Assembly (NCBI GenBank): GCA_036340075.1
Contig: JAYYZJ010000006.1
Span: 1-22,915, forward strand
Direction of reading: 5' to 3'
Length of the DNA: 22,915 nt
Source: Thermodesulfobacteriota bacterium
GTDB taxonomy: Bacteria > Desulfobacterota_D > UBA1144
Shown here piece after piece: positions 592-8,244 of the stretch (positions are counted from its first letter, which is position 1; each line of letters opens with the position of its first letter). Position numbers and translations under genes: made by a program. Below the pieces are notes generated by a model, which was given only the letters and a program-made list of their open reading frames with translations, was not told the DNA's origin and searched no databases.

Positions 592-668
<77 letters not shown>

Positions 669-701: not shown

Positions 702-1582
702 ATTAAAGGTCTTAAAACTTCCATGATTTTTTTATAAGTAGAATCAATATCATTAAGGTTAACTTCCAAATGGTTTTTTATTGAGCCCTTCTTGCCTTTA
801 AGAAAATAATCCAAAATAACATTATCTTTGTCTATTCTCATACAAAAACCTACAGGAAAATCGCAGTCTAGATTTATATCTTTTAAAAATCTACTTTCAT
901 AATTTGCTACCAGAGAATCTCTTTCGGTAGAAAACTTTTGAAAATATTGGGATAAATCTTCGTTTTTTCTAGCTTCTACAGCTAAAAATCCTTGTAAAGG
1001 GGCTGGAACTATTTCTTCATAATCAAATATATAAGCAACATTTTCTTCTAACCCTAACCTTTTAATCCCAGCAAAAGCTAAAACTATTCCATCGTATTCA
1101 CCTTTTTTCATTTTCTCAATCCTAGTGTCAACATTACCTCTTATTGGTTTGACAACTATTTCTGGATTTAAAATCTTTATTTGTTCTGTTCTTCTAGGGC
1201 TTCCAGTTCCAATTTCTGAATCTTTAGCAAAGTCATTTAAGTTTTTATTTAATTCTGATATCAATACATCTCTAGAGTCTTCCCTGTTTGATACACCTAT
1301 TATTTCTAATTCATTAGGTAAAAAAGCTGGCAAATCTTTATAGCTATGAATAGCAATATCAATCTCTTTATTAATCAAGGAATCCTCAATTTCTTTAACA
1401 AAGATTCCTTTATTTAAATTGGTATCAGAAAATTCTTCTTGGTTTATATCACCTTCAGTTGTAATTGGTACAATAATTACATTTAAATCCGGATGATTAT
1501 TAATAAGATAATCTTTTACAAAATTGGCTTGCCAAAGTGCTAATTTGCTAGATCTAGTTCCTATTCTTAAGTTTCTTTTCAT
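698..1582 (-). CDS. hemC: Hydroxymethylbilane synthase (porphobilinogen deaminase)
   Basis: IGTRSSKLALWQA, KGIFVKEIE, AIHSYKDLP, GTGSPRR, IRGNVDTRIEK motifs; cofactor Cys retained in LDCDFPVG. Confidence 0.96.
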   Translation of the reverse strand: MKRNLRIGTRSSKLALWQANFVKDYLINNHPDLNVIIVPITTEGDINQEEFSDTNLNKGIFVKEIEDSLINKEIDIAIHSYKDLPAFLPNELEIIGVSNREDSRDVLISELNKNLNDFAKDSEIGTGSPRRTEQIKILNPEIVVKPIRGNVDTRIEKMKKGEYDGIVLAFAGIKRLGLEENVAYIFDYEEIVPAPLQGFLAVEARKNEDLSQYFQKFSTERDSLVANYESRFLKDINLDCDFPVGFCMRIDKDNVILDYFLKGKKGSIKNHLEVNLNDIDSTYKKIMEVLRPLI

Positions 1583-2837
1583 TTTCTAGATTAACAACAT
1601 TGTTTACTGATTGATCTAAATCAAAAATATCCGAAAGAACTTTTAAGTATAGATTCTCTTTGATGTTCGACTCAGTTTTTACTCTATTGATTGGTACATG
1701 TAATATTTTATTTGAAATTCTTTTAGACAATAACTCTAAGTCCTTTTTGTCTCCTGATTGTGAGAGTTCAGAATTTACAATATTAAAAACATGCTCACTT
1801 AATGCTTTTATTATTTCCTTAGAATCGTTTGTATTCTCCCAACTCAAATATAAATCAACAGATTCTTGTATTATTTTTGATGCTTCCTCTATACCTTTTT
1901 CATTTCCACCAAAATCCTTATGGATAATTGATTTTAAATCATCTAAGTCATACAAGAAACATTTATCTAAATCCCCTACTCTAGGATCTATATCTCTAGG
2001 TACCGCAATATCAACAATAAAAATATGTTTATCTCTTTTAAGATGTAGTACACTTTCCATTCTTTCTTTTGTAATTAAAAAATTATCAGATCCGCTTGCT
2101 GTAAAAACCATATCTACTTCTGATAAATATTTATCTATATTATCCAAAATCACTGGTTTGCATGAATTTCTATCAGAAAAAGTTATTGCATTTTTAACAT
2201 CTTTACTAGCAACAAATATTTTAGAGCACCCATTCTTTCTAAGGTAAGAAACAATTAATTGGGATATTTCACCAGTTCCTAAAACTAAAGCACTCTTACT
2301 TTTTAACTCATCAAATATTTTTTTGCTTAAATAAACAACTAATGAGCCTATAGAATCTCCCTTCTTTCCTACGGATGTTTCACTTCTGACCCTCTTTGCT
2401 GTAAAGAGAGATATATGAATAAGTTTATGCAAATATAATCCGATAGTGCCAATAGAATTGGCAGCATTATAACTTTGTTTAATTTGATTAATAATTTGGG
2501 GTTCTCCAAATACCATAGAATCAGTACCAGATGCGACTTTTATTAAATGATAAATTGCATCTTTTTCGTGAAAAAATTGGTACGTAATCGGTGATTTGTC
2601 CATTTTAAATTTATGAAATTCAGAGATAAATTGAATAATTTCTGATTCTATATTTTCAGATTTACTATAAACATATATTTCTACTCTATTACATGTTGAT
2701 AGAATGAAACATTCTTCTACAAAAGACTCTTTATTTAAAGAATTAAGTGCAAGCTCTAAATCATTCTTGCTAAAAGAAAAGTTTTCTAAGAATGAAATAT
2801 CTGAATTATTATGATTAATTGTTAATACTGATAACAT
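1554..2837 (-). CDS. hemA: Glutamyl-tRNA reductase
   Basis: LSTCNRVEIY catalytic Cys motif, SGTDSMVFGEPQI, GTGEIS Rossmann, DIAVPRDID. Start moved to ATG 2837 (MLSVLTINH) after a purine-rich SD-like run; the track's 2936 start lies deep inside the upstream gene. Confidence 0.95.
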   Translation of the reverse strand: MLSVLTINHNNSDISFLENFSFSKNDLELALNSLNKESFVEECFILSTCNRVEIYVYSKSENIESEIIQFISEFHKFKMDKSPITYQFFHEKDAIYHLIKVASGTDSMVFGEPQIINQIKQSYNAANSIGTIGLYLHKLIHISLFTAKRVRSETSVGKKGDSIGSLVVYLSKKIFDELKSKSALVLGTGEISQLIVSYLRKNGCSKIFVASKDVKNAITFSDRNSCKPVILDNIDKYLSEVDMVFTASGSDNFLITKERMESVLHLKRDKHIFIVDIAVPRDIDPRVGDLDKCFLYDLDDLKSIIHKDFGGNEKGIEEASKIIQESVDLYLSWENTNDSKEIIKALSEHVFNIVNSELSQSGDKKDLELLSKRISNKILHVPINRVKTESNIKENLYLKVLSDIFDLDQSVNNVVNLENEKKLKNRN

Positions 2838-3885
2838 CTTCTTCCCTTCCGTATTGATTCTCCCATGTTTTATATTCATCTGAAAAATATTTAAGTCTGG
2901 TTTTCTTATATTCTTTTGAACTATATAGAGCATCATACTCTTTGATACCAGTAATATCTGATAGTTTTTTGATTAAGGAATTGCAGTCTTTAGCTGAACG
3001 GCCATGAATCATAGTAAAGAGAGAATAAGGCCAATCTGGGTAAGTAGGTCTTCTATAACAATGACTTACGGATTTAAAGCTGGCCATTTTTGGTGCAATA
3101 GATTCAATCATATCTTCTGGGACTTTCCATACTCCCATTGCATTAGCTCTGAATCCTGCTTTTCTGTGATGTAAAATCGCTGCAACTCTTCTCATTATTC
3201 CTGCTTTGTTAAATATTTTTAAATTATCAATCACTTCTTCTGCACTGATATTAAGTTTTAATCCAATTTCTTTAAATGGATTAGGTGTTAAGGGTAAGTC
3301 CTCTTGAACTTCCTTTATTATATTGATATCTTTCTCATTGAATACGTAATCGGTAGAGATATTTTCCTCACCATAAAAGTTTTCATCTTTTGATGACAAA
3401 GAATCTTCTCCTGTCATATCCAACTTAACTCCTATTTTAAATAATTTTAGAGTAGGAAGAATCCTTGTTGATTTAGAATGAGATAGATTACTTAGCAAAT
3501 CAACAGTCTGTTCAAGTCCTAATTTACTATCTGGAGGCACAGCTAAAGTAAACCAAAGATTAAAAAAGTGGTTTCTCTTGTAGTTATGTGTTACACCAGG
3601 ATGAGAATTGATAACATGGGCAGCAGTATCAAGCTTTTCTTCATCAAAAGCCATCGCAACAAGAGTTGATTTATATTTCATGCTTCTAGTATCAAAAATA
3701 GCACTAATTTGTCTTATGTATTGAACCTCTTTCAACTTTTGAGTTCTTTCTATTACTTCTTCCTCTGTAATAGATAACAAGTCGCCCAAATCCTTGTAAG
3801 GAGAAGTAGTTAAAGGAAAATTGGATTGCAATAAATTTAACAATTTGTTATCAATTTCTTCAATATTCATTTCTTTTTTGCTCAT
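2815..3885 (-). CDS. ahbAB: Siroheme decarboxylase, fused AhbA-AhbB (NirDL-type, tandem Lrp/AsnC-like domains)
   Basis: Two repeats, each a wHTH (LLQSNFPLT..PY; VQEDLPLTPNPF) plus catalytic motifs VTHNYKRNH and VSHCYRRPTYPDWPYSLFTMIH; adjacent to hemA. Confidence 0.9.
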   Translation of the reverse strand: MSKKEMNIEEIDNKLLNLLQSNFPLTTSPYKDLGDLLSITEEEVIERTQKLKEVQYIRQISAIFDTRSMKYKSTLVAMAFDEEKLDTAAHVINSHPGVTHNYKRNHFFNLWFTLAVPPDSKLGLEQTVDLLSNLSHSKSTRILPTLKLFKIGVKLDMTGEDSLSSKDENFYGEENISTDYVFNEKDINIIKEVQEDLPLTPNPFKEIGLKLNISAEEVIDNLKIFNKAGIMRRVAAILHHRKAGFRANAMGVWKVPEDMIESIAPKMASFKSVSHCYRRPTYPDWPYSLFTMIHGRSAKDCNSLIKKLSDITGIKEYDALYSSKEYKKTRLKYFSDEYKTWENQYGREEDVISINN

Positions 3886-4589
3886 TACATTATACCACCA
3901 GGTGGCATTAGGAATATTTCATCAACATTAACAGATTTTTTATTTGTAATAGAATTGTATAGAACTTCAGCAACTTCCATATCTTGCATCATCCCAGAAC
4001 GATCCCAATTTCCCCCTAAATTATCCCAAATAGCTGTATCTGTTGCGCCAATTTCGGCATGAACAACTCTAATCTTTTTAGGTCTTACCTCTTCTCTTAA
4101 TGCTTCAGTAAAACCCTTGAGTCCATATTTTGAAGCACAATAAGCACCCCAGTTTGGAAAACCATTTCTTGAAGCTAAAGAGCCCATGTTTAATATAAGA
4201 GAATCTTTTTTTAGTAGTGGTAAGAAGGATTTTGTTAACAAAAAAGCACCAGTAAGATTTACATCGATTATATTTCTCCAATCATTCAGTTTTATTTTTT
4301 CTATAGGACTGAGGACATTCGTTCCTGAATTATTAATTAAATAATCAATTCTTTTAAATTTACTTTTTACACTTTTTGTAATACGTTTTACATCTTTTTC
4401 TTTGCTTACGTCTCCTTGATAACATATTAGATTCTTTTTGTACTCTTGAAAGTCTTTGAGCAAAAGGTTGATATTAGATTTTTTTCTTGAAAAAGTAACA
4501 ACTTTAATTCCATTTTTGATTAATAATAGAACTAGACTTTTTCCTATTCCACTTGTCCCACCGCTTATTACTGCTACTTTTTCACTCAT
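3885..4589 (-). CDS. SDR oxidoreductase, probable sepiapterin-reductase-type pterin reductase
   Basis: GGTSGIG, NNSG, YCASK. The C-terminal GATDTAIW..MM..VDEIFLMP pattern resembles bacterial sepiapterin reductases (Chlorobium type, from memory). Directly follows folE. Confidence 0.8.
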   Translation of the reverse strand: MSEKVAVISGGTSGIGKSLVLLLIKNGIKVVTFSRKKSNINLLLKDFQEYKKNLICYQGDVSKEKDVKRITKSVKSKFKRIDYLINNSGTNVLSPIEKIKLNDWRNIIDVNLTGAFLLTKSFLPLLKKDSLILNMGSLASRNGFPNWGAYCASKYGLKGFTEALREEVRPKKIRVVHAEIGATDTAIWDNLGGNWDRSGMMQDMEVAEVLYNSITNKKSVNVDEIFLMPPGGIM

Positions 4590-4593
4590 AAAT

Positions 4594-5451
4594 CTAGTTT
4601 CTATGATTCCCTATTAAATTTAAAAATTCTGCTCTTGTTCTTTCGTCAGTACGAAAATAACCAAGGAGCTTACTAGTAACCGTATGAGTATCAGATTTTT
4701 TTACTCCTCTCATTTCCATGCATAAATGTCTAGCCTTTAAAACTACTCCAACTCCCTTTGCTCCTAATTCAGATTCAAGGTAATCGGCAACCTGATTAGT
4801 TATTCTTTCTTGGTTTTGTAATCTTCTAGAAAATTTTTCTAAAGTTCTAGAAAGCTTACTAATTCCTACGATTTTCTTATTTGGTATATAAGCTATGTAT
4901 CCTTTTCCAAAAAAAGGTAAAAGGTGGTGTTCGCAAAATGAATAAAATGGAATATCGAGTTGCACAATCATCTCATCAGTTTTTTCTACATCAAAGGTAG
5001 TTATATTAAATTCTGGAGGGTTTAAAAATTCTGAAAAAGCATCTAAATATCTTTTTGGTGTATTTTTTAGTCCTTCCCTATTAGGGTCTTCACCGATAAT
5101 CTCTAAAAGTCTCACAACGGTTTCTTGTTGGTCTTCATCAACTTGTTTTTCAAATGGAAAGTTTACCCAATCAACATTCTTATCTTTGCTATAAAGCGCT
5201 ATAAATTTTTTCTTTGGATAAAGCTTCTTGTATTTTTTCTTAGTTCTACCAGAATCTATTATGTCGTCCAAAATAATATCAGCATCTTCAGGATTAGATA
5301 CATTCTTACAATCAAAGAACCCGGATAAAATCATTCCATTTTTTGGCACTCCATAAATCTTAGTTTTTGAAGTAATCGAATGCTTCTTTTTTGCTGACTT
5401 AATTTTCGCTAAAATTTCATCCCATGAAAGGTGAATTATCTTCTTTGTCAT
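4594..5451 (-). CDS. folE: GTP cyclohydrolase I with N-terminal phosphoribosyltransferase-like domain
   Basis: C-terminal ~180 aa: GEDPNREGLKNTPKR, SFCEHHLLPF, SKLSR...RRLQNQER, HLCMEMRG. N-terminal ~100 aa: LSW, IYGVPKNG, IILDDIIDSGRT, WVNFPFE. Confidence 0.93.
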   Translation of the reverse strand: MTKKIIHLSWDEILAKIKSAKKKHSITSKTKIYGVPKNGMILSGFFDCKNVSNPEDADIILDDIIDSGRTKKKYKKLYPKKKFIALYSKDKNVDWVNFPFEKQVDEDQQETVVRLLEIIGEDPNREGLKNTPKRYLDAFSEFLNPPEFNITTFDVEKTDEMIVQLDIPFYSFCEHHLLPFFGKGYIAYIPNKKIVGISKLSRTLEKFSRRLQNQERITNQVADYLESELGAKGVGVVLKARHLCMEMRGVKKSDTHTVTSKLLGYFRTDERTRAEFLNLIGNHRN

Positions 5452-5453
5452 CT

Positions 5454-5870
5454 CTATTCCTCGTAATCAAAATAATTTTCTGACGTTTCCCATAATCTAA
5501 TATGTGATAATTTACCAGGTGTTGGAATCTTGTCAGCTAAATTCTTCCACAAGTATTTTGCTATGTTTTCTCCTGATGCTCTTTCTTTTGTAAAATAATC
5601 TATTTCTATATCTAATCTCTTATGATCTAATTCATCTATAATGGAAGAAACAACTTGGTCTAAATCCTCAATATTCACAATCATTCCTGTATCTTCTGCT
5701 ATATCTCCCTTAACTGTTAACTCTAAGTAATAATCATGACCATGCCCTTGAGGATTATTGCATTTACCAAAAACTTCTTTGTTCTTCTCATCAGAAAAGT
5801 TTTCATTGTGAAGTCTATGGGCGGCGCTAAAAGAATATATCTTAGTTAATGTACATTTCTCTTTAATCAT
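5454..5870 (-). CDS. 6-pyruvoyl-tetrahydropterin synthase (COG0720, PTPS-II-type motif)
   Basis: FSAAHRL, KCNNPQGHGHDY (C-X5-HGH), TGMIVN, LDHK, GEN, LWET. Start placed at ATG 5870, forming an ATGA overlap with the upstream stop. Confidence 0.92.
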   Translation of the reverse strand: MIKEKCTLTKIYSFSAAHRLHNENFSDEKNKEVFGKCNNPQGHGHDYYLELTVKGDIAEDTGMIVNIEDLDQVVSSIIDELDHKRLDIEIDYFTKERASGENIAKYLWKNLADKIPTPGKLSHIRLWETSENYFDYEE

Positions 5871-6289
5871 TGTTCTTTCCAATATTCAACAAATAAATCT
5901 TTAGTTTCGTATAATCTCACTTTTCGTAATTTACAATCTGCACATTTTAGTTTCTCTGTTATACATTCATATAATATTTTTGCAAAATTTTCTGTGGTAG
6001 GAATTAGTTCTTCAAAATAATCAGTATCTTCATTAAGAAATTTATGATCAAATTCTTTCAAAACACTTTTAATCATGGGTTTTAATTGATAAATATTGAT
6101 AATCATCCCTGTTTCTGGATCAACTGGTCCCTCTATTGTTGTTTCAAGCACATAATTGTGTCCATGACCGTACTTACTGGTGCATTTTCCAAAAACTTCC
6201 AGATTTTTTTTCTCACTCCAATTATTATTCCAATACCTATGAGAGGCAGAAAATTCCATTCGTTTTGTTAAAGTTCTATATTCAATCAT
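5867..6289 (-). CDS. 6-pyruvoyl-tetrahydropterin synthase, second paralog (PTPS-II-type motif)
   Basis: FSASHRY, KCTSKYGHGHNY (C-X5-HGH), DPETGMIIN, FDHKFLN, PTTEN, LYET. Confidence 0.92.
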   Translation of the reverse strand: MIEYRTLTKRMEFSASHRYWNNNWSEKKNLEVFGKCTSKYGHGHNYVLETTIEGPVDPETGMIINIYQLKPMIKSVLKEFDHKFLNEDTDYFEELIPTTENFAKILYECITEKLKCADCKLRKVRLYETKDLFVEYWKEQ

Positions 6290-6323
6290 AAAGCCTTTAG
6301 GATACCATTATATAGAAAGAAAA

Positions 6324-7253
6324 TTAATCAATAACCTGAACGATATTCTCCATTATTTCTATAGGAGTCTGTTTTCCAACAGGATTAGGAGTTATGATTG
6401 CCATATCAACTCCTGCATCTTTCCACTTTGAAAGTGCTTCTTTGCATTGGCTTATTGGACCTACTAATCCTAACTGTGTAACAAGTTCATCAGTTAGTAC
6501 TTCTGCAGGCTTTTCTCCACCTTTAATTTTTTCTACTATATCTCCATACCCACCAAGCGTAAGCACTCTCTGGTAGAAAGGTAGCATGCAATACCCTGTA
6601 AGTCCTTTTTTTGCAGAAGCAATTGCTAAATCTAAATCTTCTGAAATAAAAGAAGGTAGACCAGCGGTCATTATCAAATCGGATTCAAGTGAAGATGACT
6701 CTCTCCCCTTTTTTCCGGCTTGAATCAATTTTTGTAAATGATCTGGGGTTGCTAGATACGGCATTAGTCCATCTGCTACTTCACCAGCTAATTCTGCTGT
6801 TCTCTCAGTAAGTCCAGCGATATAAATAGGAAATGGTTCAACTTGTCTTTTTAGTCTAGTTTGCTTAGACGAGCCATCTAAATGTTCCCGAATTTCGTTT
6901 ACATATGTTCTCATTGAACCAATAGGATCATTCATTTCAACACCAAGTGCAGCATTAACAGGAGCATGTGATACACCAAGACCTAAAAGCATTCTGTTTC
7001 CGCTTGCTTCTTGTATGGTCATAGCCTCAGCCGCACACATGACTGAATGTCTTAAATAAATATTTGAAATCCAAGTACCTATTTTTGTTTCTTTGGTATG
7101 ATTAGATAACAAATGAGCATTGGAAAGTCCGCTCCAAGGTGGAACTTCCGGTGATAAAATTGCATAAGTATTCGAATCTTCTGCTAGTCTGGCGATCCCA
7201 ACCAAATCATTTGCTGAGCATCCAAAGACAGGTGTTGTTACAGATATATCCAT
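6324..7253 (-). CDS. LLM-class (luciferase-like) flavin/F420-dependent oxidoreductase
   Basis: IGTWISNIYLRH, SGNRMLLGLGVSH, PIYIAG, AELAGEVADG. Start at ATG 7253 preceded by SD AGGGAGGG (7266-7259). Confidence 0.88.
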   Translation of the reverse strand: MDISVTTPVFGCSANDLVGIARLAEDSNTYAILSPEVPPWSGLSNAHLLSNHTKETKIGTWISNIYLRHSVMCAAEAMTIQEASGNRMLLGLGVSHAPVNAALGVEMNDPIGSMRTYVNEIREHLDGSSKQTRLKRQVEPFPIYIAGLTERTAELAGEVADGLMPYLATPDHLQKLIQAGKKGRESSSLESDLIMTAGLPSFISEDLDLAIASAKKGLTGYCMLPFYQRVLTLGGYGDIVEKIKGGEKPAEVLTDELVTQLGLVGPISQCKEALSKWKDAGVDMAIITPNPVGKQTPIEIMENIVQVID

Positions 7254-7336
7254 GATATCCCTCCCTATATACATATTATCTTACTGAATTAATTCGATAA
7301 TTGTAAGGGCTGATTAATTATAAAAATTATCTAAAA

Positions 7337-8227
7337 TCAATATTGATTCACTATATCTCTATAATATTCTGGCCTTAAATCTTCTTCTGATTTTTCTAGG
7401 ATAATTTTTTTTATTTTCTGAACTATTTCTGCTTTATCTTTGGGATAGATTGCTTTTATAGGTAAATAATTAGAAATATGGTTTGAAAAGAAATATCCGT
7501 TCGAAAGTTCTGTATTCTCAGCTATTATCTCCAGCTCTTTTAAAAGTTGGAATTTATCAGGAAGTTCAAAGTCTCCTTTCTTCCAAAGACTGTAAATTGG
7601 CGCATCAGGTCTTAACTGTAACGATAACAACCCAACATAATCAGGGTCTCCTTTCGTAAGCATATCAGCTGTTTCATAAGCATGAATAATACTTCTATCT
7701 TTTCCTCCTACACCCAAGAGAACCATACCGGATACTTTAATTCCAGCATTTTTTAACTTTATCATTGATTCGATAGTTTGCTCTTTATTAGCGCCCTTTT
7801 TAATCCTACTAAGAGTTATATCATCTCCACTTTCAAAACCTATATAGACCAAAGACAGACCAGCTTCAGCTAAAGCATTTAATTCTGCTTCTTTTTTTCT
7901 TAGTATATCTTTTACATTTCCATATAAAGAGACTCTTTCCATATTTGGATTAGATACTTTAATTTGCTTAATAACATCTACAAGCTTATTTGTAGGCATT
8001 ATAAGTGCATTACCATCCGCAATAAACGATCTACGAAAATCGGGAGATGAACGCTCCGAGATTATTTTAAAAATCTCTTCTTTGGATCTAATTTTAAACT
8101 TCTGATTCAGTTGTCTATACATTGCGCAATATGTACATTGATTGTGAGAACATCCAACAGTGGCTTGTATTAAAAGACTATTGGCTTCACTTGGTGGTCT
8201 AAACATTGGTTGTTCAAATTGAATCAT
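7337..8227 (-). CDS. Radical SAM protein of unknown function
   Basis: FRPPSEANSLLIQATVGCSHNQCTYC (CX3CX2C), YIGFESG; no SPASM cysteines. Start at ATG 8227 (MIQFEQP). Confidence 0.88.
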   Translation of the reverse strand: MIQFEQPMFRPPSEANSLLIQATVGCSHNQCTYCAMYRQLNQKFKIRSKEEIFKIISERSSPDFRRSFIADGNALIMPTNKLVDVIKQIKVSNPNMERVSLYGNVKDILRKKEAELNALAEAGLSLVYIGFESGDDITLSRIKKGANKEQTIESMIKLKNAGIKVSGMVLLGVGGKDRSIIHAYETADMLTKGDPDYVGLLSLQLRPDAPIYSLWKKGDFELPDKFQLLKELEIIAENTELSNGYFFSNHISNYLPIKAIYPKDKAEIVQKIKKIILEKSEEDLRPEYYRDIVNQY

Positions 8228-8231
8228 GATA

Positions 8232-8241
8232 TATAATAACA
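8232..8241. promoter_or_regulatory. Overlapping divergent -10 elements (radical SAM gene / small ORF)
   Basis: Minus strand TG-T-TATTAT (8241-8233) lies 5 nt before ATG 8227; plus strand TATAAT (8232-8237) lies 7 nt before GTG 8245. Confidence 0.4.
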
Positions 8242-8244
8242 TCT

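Follow-up and report, generated by a model that had tools for sequence, protein, structure and literature searches.

GTP cyclohydrolase I (FolE, or GCH1 in mammals) opens the routes to folate, biopterin and queuosine, and also to the 7-deazaguanine modifications by which phages protect their DNA from restriction and CRISPR. In its canonical bacterial and eukaryotic forms the catalytic core is preceded by a short N-terminal helix only (E. coli FolE has 39 residues before the core), and the mammalian enzyme is regulated in trans by GFRP. The protein considered here departs from that plan: within a 22,915-nucleotide stretch of contig JAYYZJ010000006.1 from a Thermodesulfobacteriota bacterium (hereafter the window, meaning that whole stretch), a FolE of 285 amino acids carries ahead of its core a compact module with the fold of a phosphoribosyltransferase (PRT) and so, unlike GCH1 with its regulator in trans, would have a nucleotide-binding fold built in. 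The best structural and profile match to the module is E. coli Gpt, or xanthine-guanine phosphoribosyltransferase (XGPRT; 152 amino acids; 1a95, 1nul, 4jls), which shares its fold but is a free enzyme rather than a domain of FolE, and which has two segments, at about 55–80 and 117–131, that the module lacks. TubE and ToyH, from the pathways of 7-deazapurine nucleoside antibiotics, offer another case of a purine-type PRT tied genetically to GTP cyclohydrolase I; TubE, however, is a free 194-residue enzyme of Streptomyces clusters, and the window operon is without QueE or QueC. The same two domains, again with a loop-less PRT part, make up the FolE of phages (Pseudomonas PaMx25, NP1 and JG054; Vibrio VpKK5; Stenotrophomonas vB_SM_ytsc_ply2008005c), in proteins of about 295–300 amino acids; among cultured phages the extra domain goes back to the PaMx25 record (JQ067084), and the records say ‘GTP cyclohydrolase’ only. 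A literature search, with subscription journals, supplements and InterPro outside its scope, found no paper on the PRT-FolE fusion or on the phage PRT genes. Papers on deazaguanines treat FolE as a plain GTP cyclohydrolase, and the word ‘phosphoribosyl’ is absent from the available portions of PMC10516641, PMC10484667 and PMC7472734; the CP220 record already bears an automatic ‘PRTase-like’ note. With folds that are known and sequences that are public, it is the architecture with its minimised PRT that we rate as unrecognised and uncharacterised. The gene and its parts lie as follows.

4594 to 5451, minus strand: whole gene, loop-less PRT module plus FolE, 285 amino acids, stop codon included (open reading frame list and translation)
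5143 to 5451, minus strand: loop-less PRT-fold module, residues 1–103 (hhalign, AF2 model, Foldseek)
5335 to 5352, minus strand: loop I, equivalent of the pyrophosphate (PPi) loop, G34-V-P-K-N-G39, aligned with Gpt S36-R37-G38-G39
5242 to 5277, minus strand: phosphoribosyl pyrophosphate (PRPP)/ribose-5-phosphate motif, I59-ILDDIIDSGRT70 (D62, D63, D66, S67, G68, T70)
5149 to 5169, minus strand: W95-VNFPFE101, the equivalent of Gpt W134-IEQPWD
4612 to 5124, minus strand: GTP cyclohydrolase I (FolE) catalytic core, residues 110–280 (Pfam PF01227, TIGR00063, Foldseek)
5458 to 5462, minus strand: Shine-Dalgarno-like GAGGA, 6 nt 5' of the ATG at 5451

The initial annotation had read the first ~102 residues as PRT-like, and as something that ordinary FolE does not carry, from four strings that are all found in the minus-strand translation: LSWDEI at residues 8–13, IYGVPKNG at 32–39, IILDDIIDSGRT at 59–70 and WVNFPFE at 95–101, the last followed directly in the 285-residue protein by LLEIIGEDPNREGL (positions 5146–5451 being residues 1–102). 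Family models capture only a part of this region. Pfam gives no match to residues 1–102 at E ≤ 0.1, and the PF00156 gathering score is not reached (relatives score 16–27 bits against 26.3, through the PRPP motif only); the NCBIfam xanthine PRT model NF006613 matches residues 51–96 over profile positions 82–127 of 159 (E 2e-8), short of its equivalog cut-off at 34 bits against 138; a sequence search of the PDB returns six XGPRT sequences over residues 55–90 (E 0.002–0.003); and PHROG 8995 ‘phosphoribosyl transferase’ matches only residues 58–93 (E 1.5e-7, profile 83–117 of 148), with relatives of the module reaching E 4e-14. Profile-to-profile alignment extends the match to the full module: 18 N-terminal domains compared by hhalign with five full-size PRTs (E. 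coli Gpt, a Gpt from a Sneathiella metagenome-assembled genome (MAG), two Campylobacterota proteins of the H. pylori type and the phiST phage PRT) align at a probability of 99.4% (E 9.6e-22), residues 3–103 matching Gpt 2–142. An AF2 model of residues 1–110 from a 48-row alignment (pLDDT 90.1, pTM 0.81) finds E. coli XGPRT 4jls as its top Foldseek match in the PDB (E 1.7e-5, TM 0.69–0.71), followed by purine PRTs of Yersinia, Helicobacter, Pyrococcus and Sulfolobus. There are 37 matches at E ≤ 1e-3, and the 19 distinct PDB entries listed within that bound are without exception purine PRTs, 17 acting on 6-oxopurines; 5vog, a PRT-fold protein bound to ppGpp, falls just outside at E 1.3e-3. The full-length model matches GTP cyclohydrolases only. 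The PRT proposal is thus borne out: by profile alignment and predicted structure, residues 1–103 are shown to be homologous to the Gpt/XGPRT branch of type I PRTs but reduced to the nucleotide-binding core.

What has been kept and what has been lost can be read against E. coli Gpt (sequence from the K-12 record). Invariant across these mini-PRTs are Gpt G39, D88, D89, D92, G94 and W134, corresponding to window G39, D62, D63, D66, G68 and W95; Gpt T93 and T96 align with S67 and T70, Gpt K115 with K89 (the conserved lysine after strand 4), and an N-terminal tryptophan is also common. Among 48 sequences, G34 and G39 of loop I are invariant, the PRPP-motif residues are invariant or almost so (DDIIDSGRT aligning with Gpt DDLVDTGGT), the W95 and E101 columns do not vary, and those of F98 and P99 hardly do. 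D66 we take to be the catalytic base of 6-oxopurine PRTs. Across 115 homologues loop I reads RGG in 61, KNG in 52 (the window clade) and RNG in 2. The Gpt hairpin of ~25 residues at about 55–80, with the flexible catalytic loop (loop II) between strands 2 and 3, has no counterpart in any mini-PRT aligned. From loop I to the PRPP motif there are 25 residues in the window protein and 20–39 in 118 of 118 measurable family members, against 51 in Gpt (R37–D88). In type I PRTs this hairpin bears the flexible catalytic loop, which is required for catalysis. Of the hood that covers the purine (Gpt 117–135, with the stacking tryptophan), about 15 residues, Gpt 117–131, are also without a counterpart in the window clade, although the equivalents of W134 and K115 are retained; the gap there is complete in the window clade, partial in Queuovirinae phages, and absent in some fused forms (Gallionella, Smithella and Abditibacteriota MAGs) and free forms (two MAGs and the immuto phage). 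Since the Pfam and Gpt equivalog thresholds are missed and a defining structural element of active type I PRTs is gone, the module is not classed as Gpt; since the flexible loop and the hood segment are gone and loop I reads K-N-G rather than R-G-G, catalysis is doubtful. The Gpt layout first proposed therefore stands for the PRPP motif, loop I, the tryptophan and the W..FPWE element, whereas the further idea of a compact yet complete PRT does not, with both Gpt segments missing and loop I changed.

The reading we favour, at a probability of roughly 0.4 to 0.45, is that the module binds a ligand, a guanine nucleotide or PRPP that it either senses or captures, and in this way modulates FolE. 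It would no longer be a stand-alone salvage enzyme; its retained pocket would bind a guanine nucleotide (of the GMP, GDP, GTP or ppGpp type) or PRPP, the bound ligand would tune or feed the attached FolE, and the module would serve as a built-in purine-status sensor or substrate-capture domain on the outer face of the FolE oligomer. Behind this preference stand the conserved pocket residues, the loss of the lid and, in the window clade, a changed PPi loop. That FolE is the constant partner, in preQ0/DpdA phages, beside QueC and QueF in Smithella and beside a pterin synthase and a dehydrogenase here, suggests that the module concerns the input of FolE, guanine nucleotides, and not the end product. 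Several points weigh on the other side. The invariant acidic pair and D66 are expected in an active enzyme too, and because such an enzyme would conserve the same residues, their conservation does not separate binding from catalysis; the stand-alone relatives found in phages with fully substituted DNA suit a catalytic role better; and the full-length model gives no confident packing of one domain on the other (pTM 0.55). Docking of the FolE core (108–285) with the module (1–104) gave a score of 0.00 against a mark of 0.32, which is no verdict either way.

Alternatively, the module might be an active 6-oxopurine PRT that converts guanine and PRPP to GMP and so refills the guanine-nucleotide pool drained by FolE or, in phage and queuosine-tRNA settings, recycles the guanine freed by base exchange through DpdA or TGT. 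XGPRTs are its nearest relatives by both sequence and fold; the 48 diverse sequences agree in the acidic pair, D66, the 5'-phosphate loop, K89 and W95; a positive charge (R or K) is kept in loop I in 115 of 115 homologues scored; the module is under purifying selection; and dpdA or tgt co-occurs in the phage clusters. Set against these are the flexible-loop hairpin missing in every member, the loss of most of the hood and the change from R-G-G to K-N-G in the window clade, a length of ~100 residues that is one third below the smallest PRTs matched (131–152), and the lack of dpdA and tgt in the window. Moreover, GMP is two kinase steps from the substrate of FolE, so that the fusion would give no channelling. 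We consider this alternative unlikely, though to be taken seriously.

The partner of the module is in no way reduced. Pfam PF01227 matches the core at 216.3 bits (cut-off 27; E 2.9e-64), and three NCBIfam FolE models score above their cut-offs, among them TIGR00063 (198.5 bits against 181.6) and NF006825 (206.7 against 174). E. coli FolE C111, H113, H114, E153, H180 and C182 (Met1 counted) correspond to window C173, H175, H176, E215, H242 and C244, six residues that are invariant in 23 homologues and that we take to be the zinc ligands and the catalytic histidine and glutamate residues. For the T-fold core, Foldseek recovers GTP cyclohydrolase I of rat, human, Thermus and M. tuberculosis (1is7, 1wm9, 6z86, 9p8z; E 1e-22 to 1e-18, target TM 0.83–0.88). 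By profile, residues and modelled fold alike, then, residues ~108–285 are shown to be a standard zinc-type GTP cyclohydrolase I, a full member of the canonical family, with all of its catalytic residues in place.

An extension absent from textbook forms of an enzyme invites the suspicion of an annotation artefact, with translation beginning near the FolE core. Precedents for a late start do exist: one NCBI MAG protein (P0071, 182 amino acids, 85% identical) is annotated from the core alone, and folE of the PaMx25 record is likewise given a late start. In PaMx25 (NC_041953.1, 5862–6792 of the extracted locus) folE is annotated with 191 amino acids and overlaps a 124-residue gp38; this upstream ‘hypothetical protein’ is read in a different frame; that of folE stays open over 297 amino acids, the PRT module included, and the record is likely a mis-annotation. 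In the window the start signals lie at M1. The TAG stop of the upstream gene (5454–5456) is separated from the ATG of PRT-FolE by a gap of 2 nt, consistent with translational coupling, and the Shine-Dalgarno-like site lies 6 nt before this ATG, whereas near the core there is no ATG, and the sole other in-frame start is a GTG at V113 without a Shine-Dalgarno-like sequence. At least 95% of the 285-residue query is covered by 116 of the 120 best homologues (identity 53–100%), and loop I, the PRPP motif, W..FPWE and the CEHH of FolE are all present in 115 of the 120 best full-length homologues, the other five being two core-only, one N-terminally short and two with variant motifs. The ratio of non-synonymous to synonymous substitution (dN/dS), where computable among six related genomes, is 0.10–0.21 for residues 1–103 and 0.03–0.09 for the core, values that are rough because dS is saturated. 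From the conservation of the motifs, the start signals and dN/dS together, we take the N-terminal extension to be a translated and selected part of the protein, under purifying selection and conserved down to 53% identity; an artefactual start, which the initial annotation had named as one finding that would overturn its reading, is scarcely credible.

The genes around PRT-FolE bear on what the fused enzyme might supply. They form a tight string on the minus strand, with intergenic gaps of -16 to 62 nt, in the order radical SAM, LLM, two 6-pyruvoyl-tetrahydropterin synthase (PTPS) genes, PRT-FolE, short-chain dehydrogenase/reductase (SDR), a fused AhbA/B-like siroheme decarboxylase, hemA and hemC. 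The neighbours nearest to the gene are the following.

7337 to 8242, minus strand: radical SAM protein, head of the gene string (Pfam Radical_SAM 2.6e-19)
6324 to 7274, minus strand: luciferase-like (F420-type LLM) oxidoreductase (Bac_luciferase 2.6e-30; NCBIfam F420 LLM models below their cut-offs)
5867 to 6289, minus strand: PTPS paralogue a, 140 amino acids (Pfam PTPS 1.9e-34), syntenic
5454 to 5882, minus strand: PTPS paralogue b, 142 amino acids, the upstream neighbour (Pfam PTPS 5e-32), syntenic in six MAG loci
3885 to 4589, minus strand: SDR, downstream, 4 nt past the FolE stop (Pfam adh_short 6.4e-50), syntenic

The two PTPS paralogues are 41–46% identical to each other, and both carry C-x5-HGH, which marks the 6-pyruvoyl-tetrahydropterin synthase type. 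The motif given for QueD in a literature passage quoted in part is CxxxHGH. There is no QueC in the window operon and no dpdA or tgt in the window, and of the 27 NCBIfam matches to the radical SAM protein, the 25 that were listed include no QueE model. Given these absences and the C-x5-HGH motif, the operon looks like a pterin pathway (FolE, PTPS and a reductase) and not a deazaguanine one, and a deazaguanine base would not be expected from it. The string at 3885–8242 (minus strand) looks like a biopterin-like or otherwise modified pterin pathway that adjoins Ahb-type heme genes. Among the latter, the siroheme-decarboxylase-like protein at 2815–3885 (minus strand) comprises two AsnC-type ligand-binding and two helix-turn-helix modules, and so appears to be a fusion of the AhbA-AhbB type; the hemA frame as listed (1554–2936, minus strand) overlaps it by 122 nt, so that the true hemA start is probably further downstream.

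Nothing in this setting points to a recent arrival from a phage. No phage genes were seen near PRT-FolE in the window, the G+C content is uniform (28–36%), and six MAG loci share both the gene order and its flanks (proS, pyrF, a MaoC-type dehydratase and hflX), with housekeeping proteins 45–77% and FolE 73–86% identical; one of the six (L006) gives no radical-SAM match. The only Rfam match in the window is a tRNA gene (595–668, minus strand); the same scan found no riboswitch, and a scan for promoters and terminators stayed at chance (30 promoter-like sites against 31.7 expected).

Beyond this lineage, phages are the centre of the family to which the module belongs; there it is fused to folE or lies beside it in clusters for 7-deazaguanine DNA modification. 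The link emerges only through the full-length protein or through phage-type modules, the window's own 102 residues giving no tblastn match in phages at E ≤ 1e-3. With the whole protein as query, tblastn matches 405 of 50,697 phage records, in 31 cases along 80% or more of the query. A phage-type module alone finds 35 phage records, all at folE (Pseudomonas 19, Vibrio 7, Stenotrophomonas 3, Xanthomonas 2, Variovorax 2, Sphingomonas 2), and the fused phage folE genes are located in queE-queC-queD-folE-dpdA clusters. FolE of the Queuovirinae and related phages is 43–45% identical to the window protein, its module reading R-G-G and keeping a few more hood residues, and its clusters adjoin DNA polymerase; the window gene, by contrast, is part of a cellular pterin-type operon. 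A stand-alone family member (P0144) finds 53 phage records: 34 at folE, one unannotated, and 18 as separate ‘phosphoribosyl transferase’ genes, which belong to the Campylobacter CP220 group (9), the Cellulophaga phiST group (5) and the Flavobacterium immuto group (4). These free forms (PHROG 8995; immuto_2-6A gp211, phiST CGPG_00045, CP220) are homologous modules encoded by genes of 131–142 amino acids. All three have sequence of hood length; at the position of the flexible loop phiST has a full-length insert, CP220 a short one and immuto none. The PRT gene of immuto_2-6A stops 70 nt short of the folE downstream of it, within a queD-queE-PRT-folE-dpdA-dpdN-queF region, an arrangement that, to judge from gene order, is a split form of the PRT-FolE fusion; the PRT gene of phiST lies near ribonucleotide reductase and that of CP220 near a radical SAM gene. 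In the ESM Atlas the nearest clusters consist of ‘phosphoribosyl transferase domain’ proteins of 98–127 amino acids, 67–100% viral among members with taxa, and the best structure in BFVD is the phiST PRT.

These free-standing phage genes make room for another function, the TubE-like phosphoribosylation of a 7-deazaguanine base (CDG, preQ0, ADG or DG), which would give phages a nucleotide-level route to modified DNA and which in this bacterium would act on a pterin or related base. In the available portion of PMC6112128, TubE, which serves tubercidin synthesis, was shown to join CDG to PRPP, and its gene accompanies those for GTP cyclohydrolase I, CPH4 synthase and a radical SAM enzyme. The phage groups with stand-alone relatives, as far as the accessible parts of PMC10516641 and PMC10484667 report, have 7-deazaguanines without a canonical dG peak or with complete substitution, two of the groups being without a clear DpdA: phiST DNA contains 7-deazaguanine, and immuto_2-6A DNA formylamino-methyl-7-deazaguanine, with only dA, dC and dT reported as canonical nucleosides in both (PMC10516641), and in Firehammervirus dG is fully substituted by dADG, with no DpdA identified (PMC10484667). 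The phiST PRT is, besides, the best viral structural match to the module. For the window protein, nevertheless, the case is poor. Its operon has neither QueE nor QueC, its PTPS motifs do not suit a deazaguanine base, and it lacks the loop-sized insert that phiST keeps at the position of the Gpt flexible loop; the fused forms occur in phages bearing DpdA, in which, according to the parts of those papers at hand, the base is inserted after replication; and the fusion partner is the first enzyme of the pathway rather than the last. We regard such an activity as distinctly improbable in the window protein and less so in the free phage forms, and for the former retain a ligand-binding module as the favoured reading.

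The family is wider still in environmental sequence. In a representative library of 1.84 billion proteins the module finds 314 at E ≤ 1e-3; among the 150 of these that were listed, the FolE core is full in 23, partial in 19 (mostly truncated) and absent in 108, proportions that are not frequencies, as the library was clustered at 50% identity and probably hides many fused forms. Eight free-standing members of 132–165 amino acids (P0123, P0124, P0126, P0129, P0131, P0132, P0138 and P0144) have, after W..FPWE, a helix like the first helix of FolE (D-x-E-D-x-hydrophobic-hydrophobic-R) and a short helical tail but no catalytic core, and may be truncated derivatives of the fusion or partners that act on FolE in trans. 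Two metagenomic PRT-FolE proteins (P0203, 582 amino acids; P0241, 422) have a FolE core interrupted by an intein, in one case with an HNH endonuclease. Other fusions are seen among P0212 (217 amino acids), P0234 (216) and P0267 (243): the partner is in one case a MazG-like pyrophosphatase (PHROG 5658 and 3301; E 3e-28), which likewise acts on nucleoside triphosphates, and in two proteins a common C-terminal region without a family match. Of two further candidates, P0224 as a PRT-DpdA/TGT-like fusion is a lead only (PHROG 887 E 7e-11, nothing in Pfam, phage DpdA BLAST E 0.024), and a hypothetical gene between queC and queD of Microcystis phage Me-ZS1, checked as a possible split PRT, is not one. 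A marine metagenomic group of fused proteins stands at 53–60% identity; whether it is viral or cellular is to be judged from two source names, ‘Prokaryotic dsDNA virus sp.’ (P0074) and ‘Winogradskyella sp.’ (P0117), and from contigs no longer than about 36 kb.

In a scan of species-representative genomes with six closer sequences, at least 25 loci were confirmed. An orthologue of 284–285 amino acids occurs in at least six MAGs (three Thermodesulfobacteriota, two labelled ‘bacterium’ and one Spirochaetales), and more distant fused forms appear, among the loci listed, in Omnitrophota, Gammaproteobacteria, Dehalococcoidia (at least four), Smithella, Gallionella and Abditibacteriota MAGs, some of them on short, phage-like contigs. 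The Smithella fusion adjoins QueC and QueF, and the Gallionella fusion adjoins QueD and QueE. The fused genes of Dehalococcoidia (L012, L013, L014 and L016; G+C content 67–68%) form a very long branch of 2.5 changes per site in a context of CoA-transferases and Fic that is neither phage nor Que; as the CEHH string is missing in three of these four loci, their FolE half may have changed function.

How the module came to this lineage was addressed with a maximum-likelihood tree of the FolE core from 102 hand-picked rows (60 fused, 41 unfused, mostly nearest matches, and E. coli FolE as outgroup). The window clade comprises 12 rows, all fused, at 98% support, and lies inside a larger marine group of fused and unfused sequences. 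Over the whole tree fused and unfused proteins are interleaved, with ten state changes of which at least three are forced by well-supported branches, and this shows that the module has been repeatedly gained or lost. With one unambiguously cellular unfused FolE in the tree, the direction of transfer is not told. A phage source for the gene, as put forward in the initial annotation, therefore fares unevenly: the fusion is not unique, the same architecture is the folE of the 35 cultured-phage records and the nearest ESM-Atlas clusters are largely viral, so that a transfer from phage to cell is plausible given where the family is concentrated; a recent insertion is contradicted by the syntenic housekeeping surroundings and the even base composition. 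The fused gene is old and vertically inherited in the window lineage, a set of AT-rich MAGs mostly labelled Thermodesulfobacteriota, and as its pterin-type operon is syntenic in six MAG species, any phage origin must be old as well.

The same tree bears on whether the module does anything at all, or is an inert passenger or purely structural appendage, such as a tag for oligomerisation or solubility that came along with a phage-type folE. Unfused FolEs nested among fused ones imply a domain readily gained or lost, and the module evolves 2–3 times faster than the core. Yet the residues that remain invariant over 31–72% identity are the ligand-contacting motifs of PRTs, dN/dS is at most about 0.2, and the family includes the free-standing members without a FolE core and those with other fusion partners noted above. 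An inert passenger is, like a false start, unlikely, and we give it very little credence; a module that binds a guanine nucleotide or PRPP on behalf of FolE is still the reading preferred.

Taken across the family, it is conceivable, if on the doubtful side, that loop-less PRT modules, fused to folE or beside it, play a part in 7-deazaguanine and pterin pathways that has gone unrecognised, either as minimal active PRTs that convert guanine or a 7-deazaguanine base to a nucleotide or as built-in guanine-nucleotide/(p)ppGpp sensors that gate the entry of GTP. For annotation, the consequences are that the folE start needs correcting in the PaMx25 record and in one or more MAGs, and that N-termini negative in Pfam gain a fold. 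For the pathway itself, the module is a candidate for how it is fed or regulated. If catalytic, it could explain the complete replacement of G in some phages and supply the missing pre-replicative route in those without a clear DpdA; if a sensor, it would represent a new wiring of purine status to pterin or deazapurine output. Either way, if true, it would be the smallest functional unit of the PRT fold known, and a new component of phage DNA hypermodification that a marine bacterial lineage later turned to use in making pterins.

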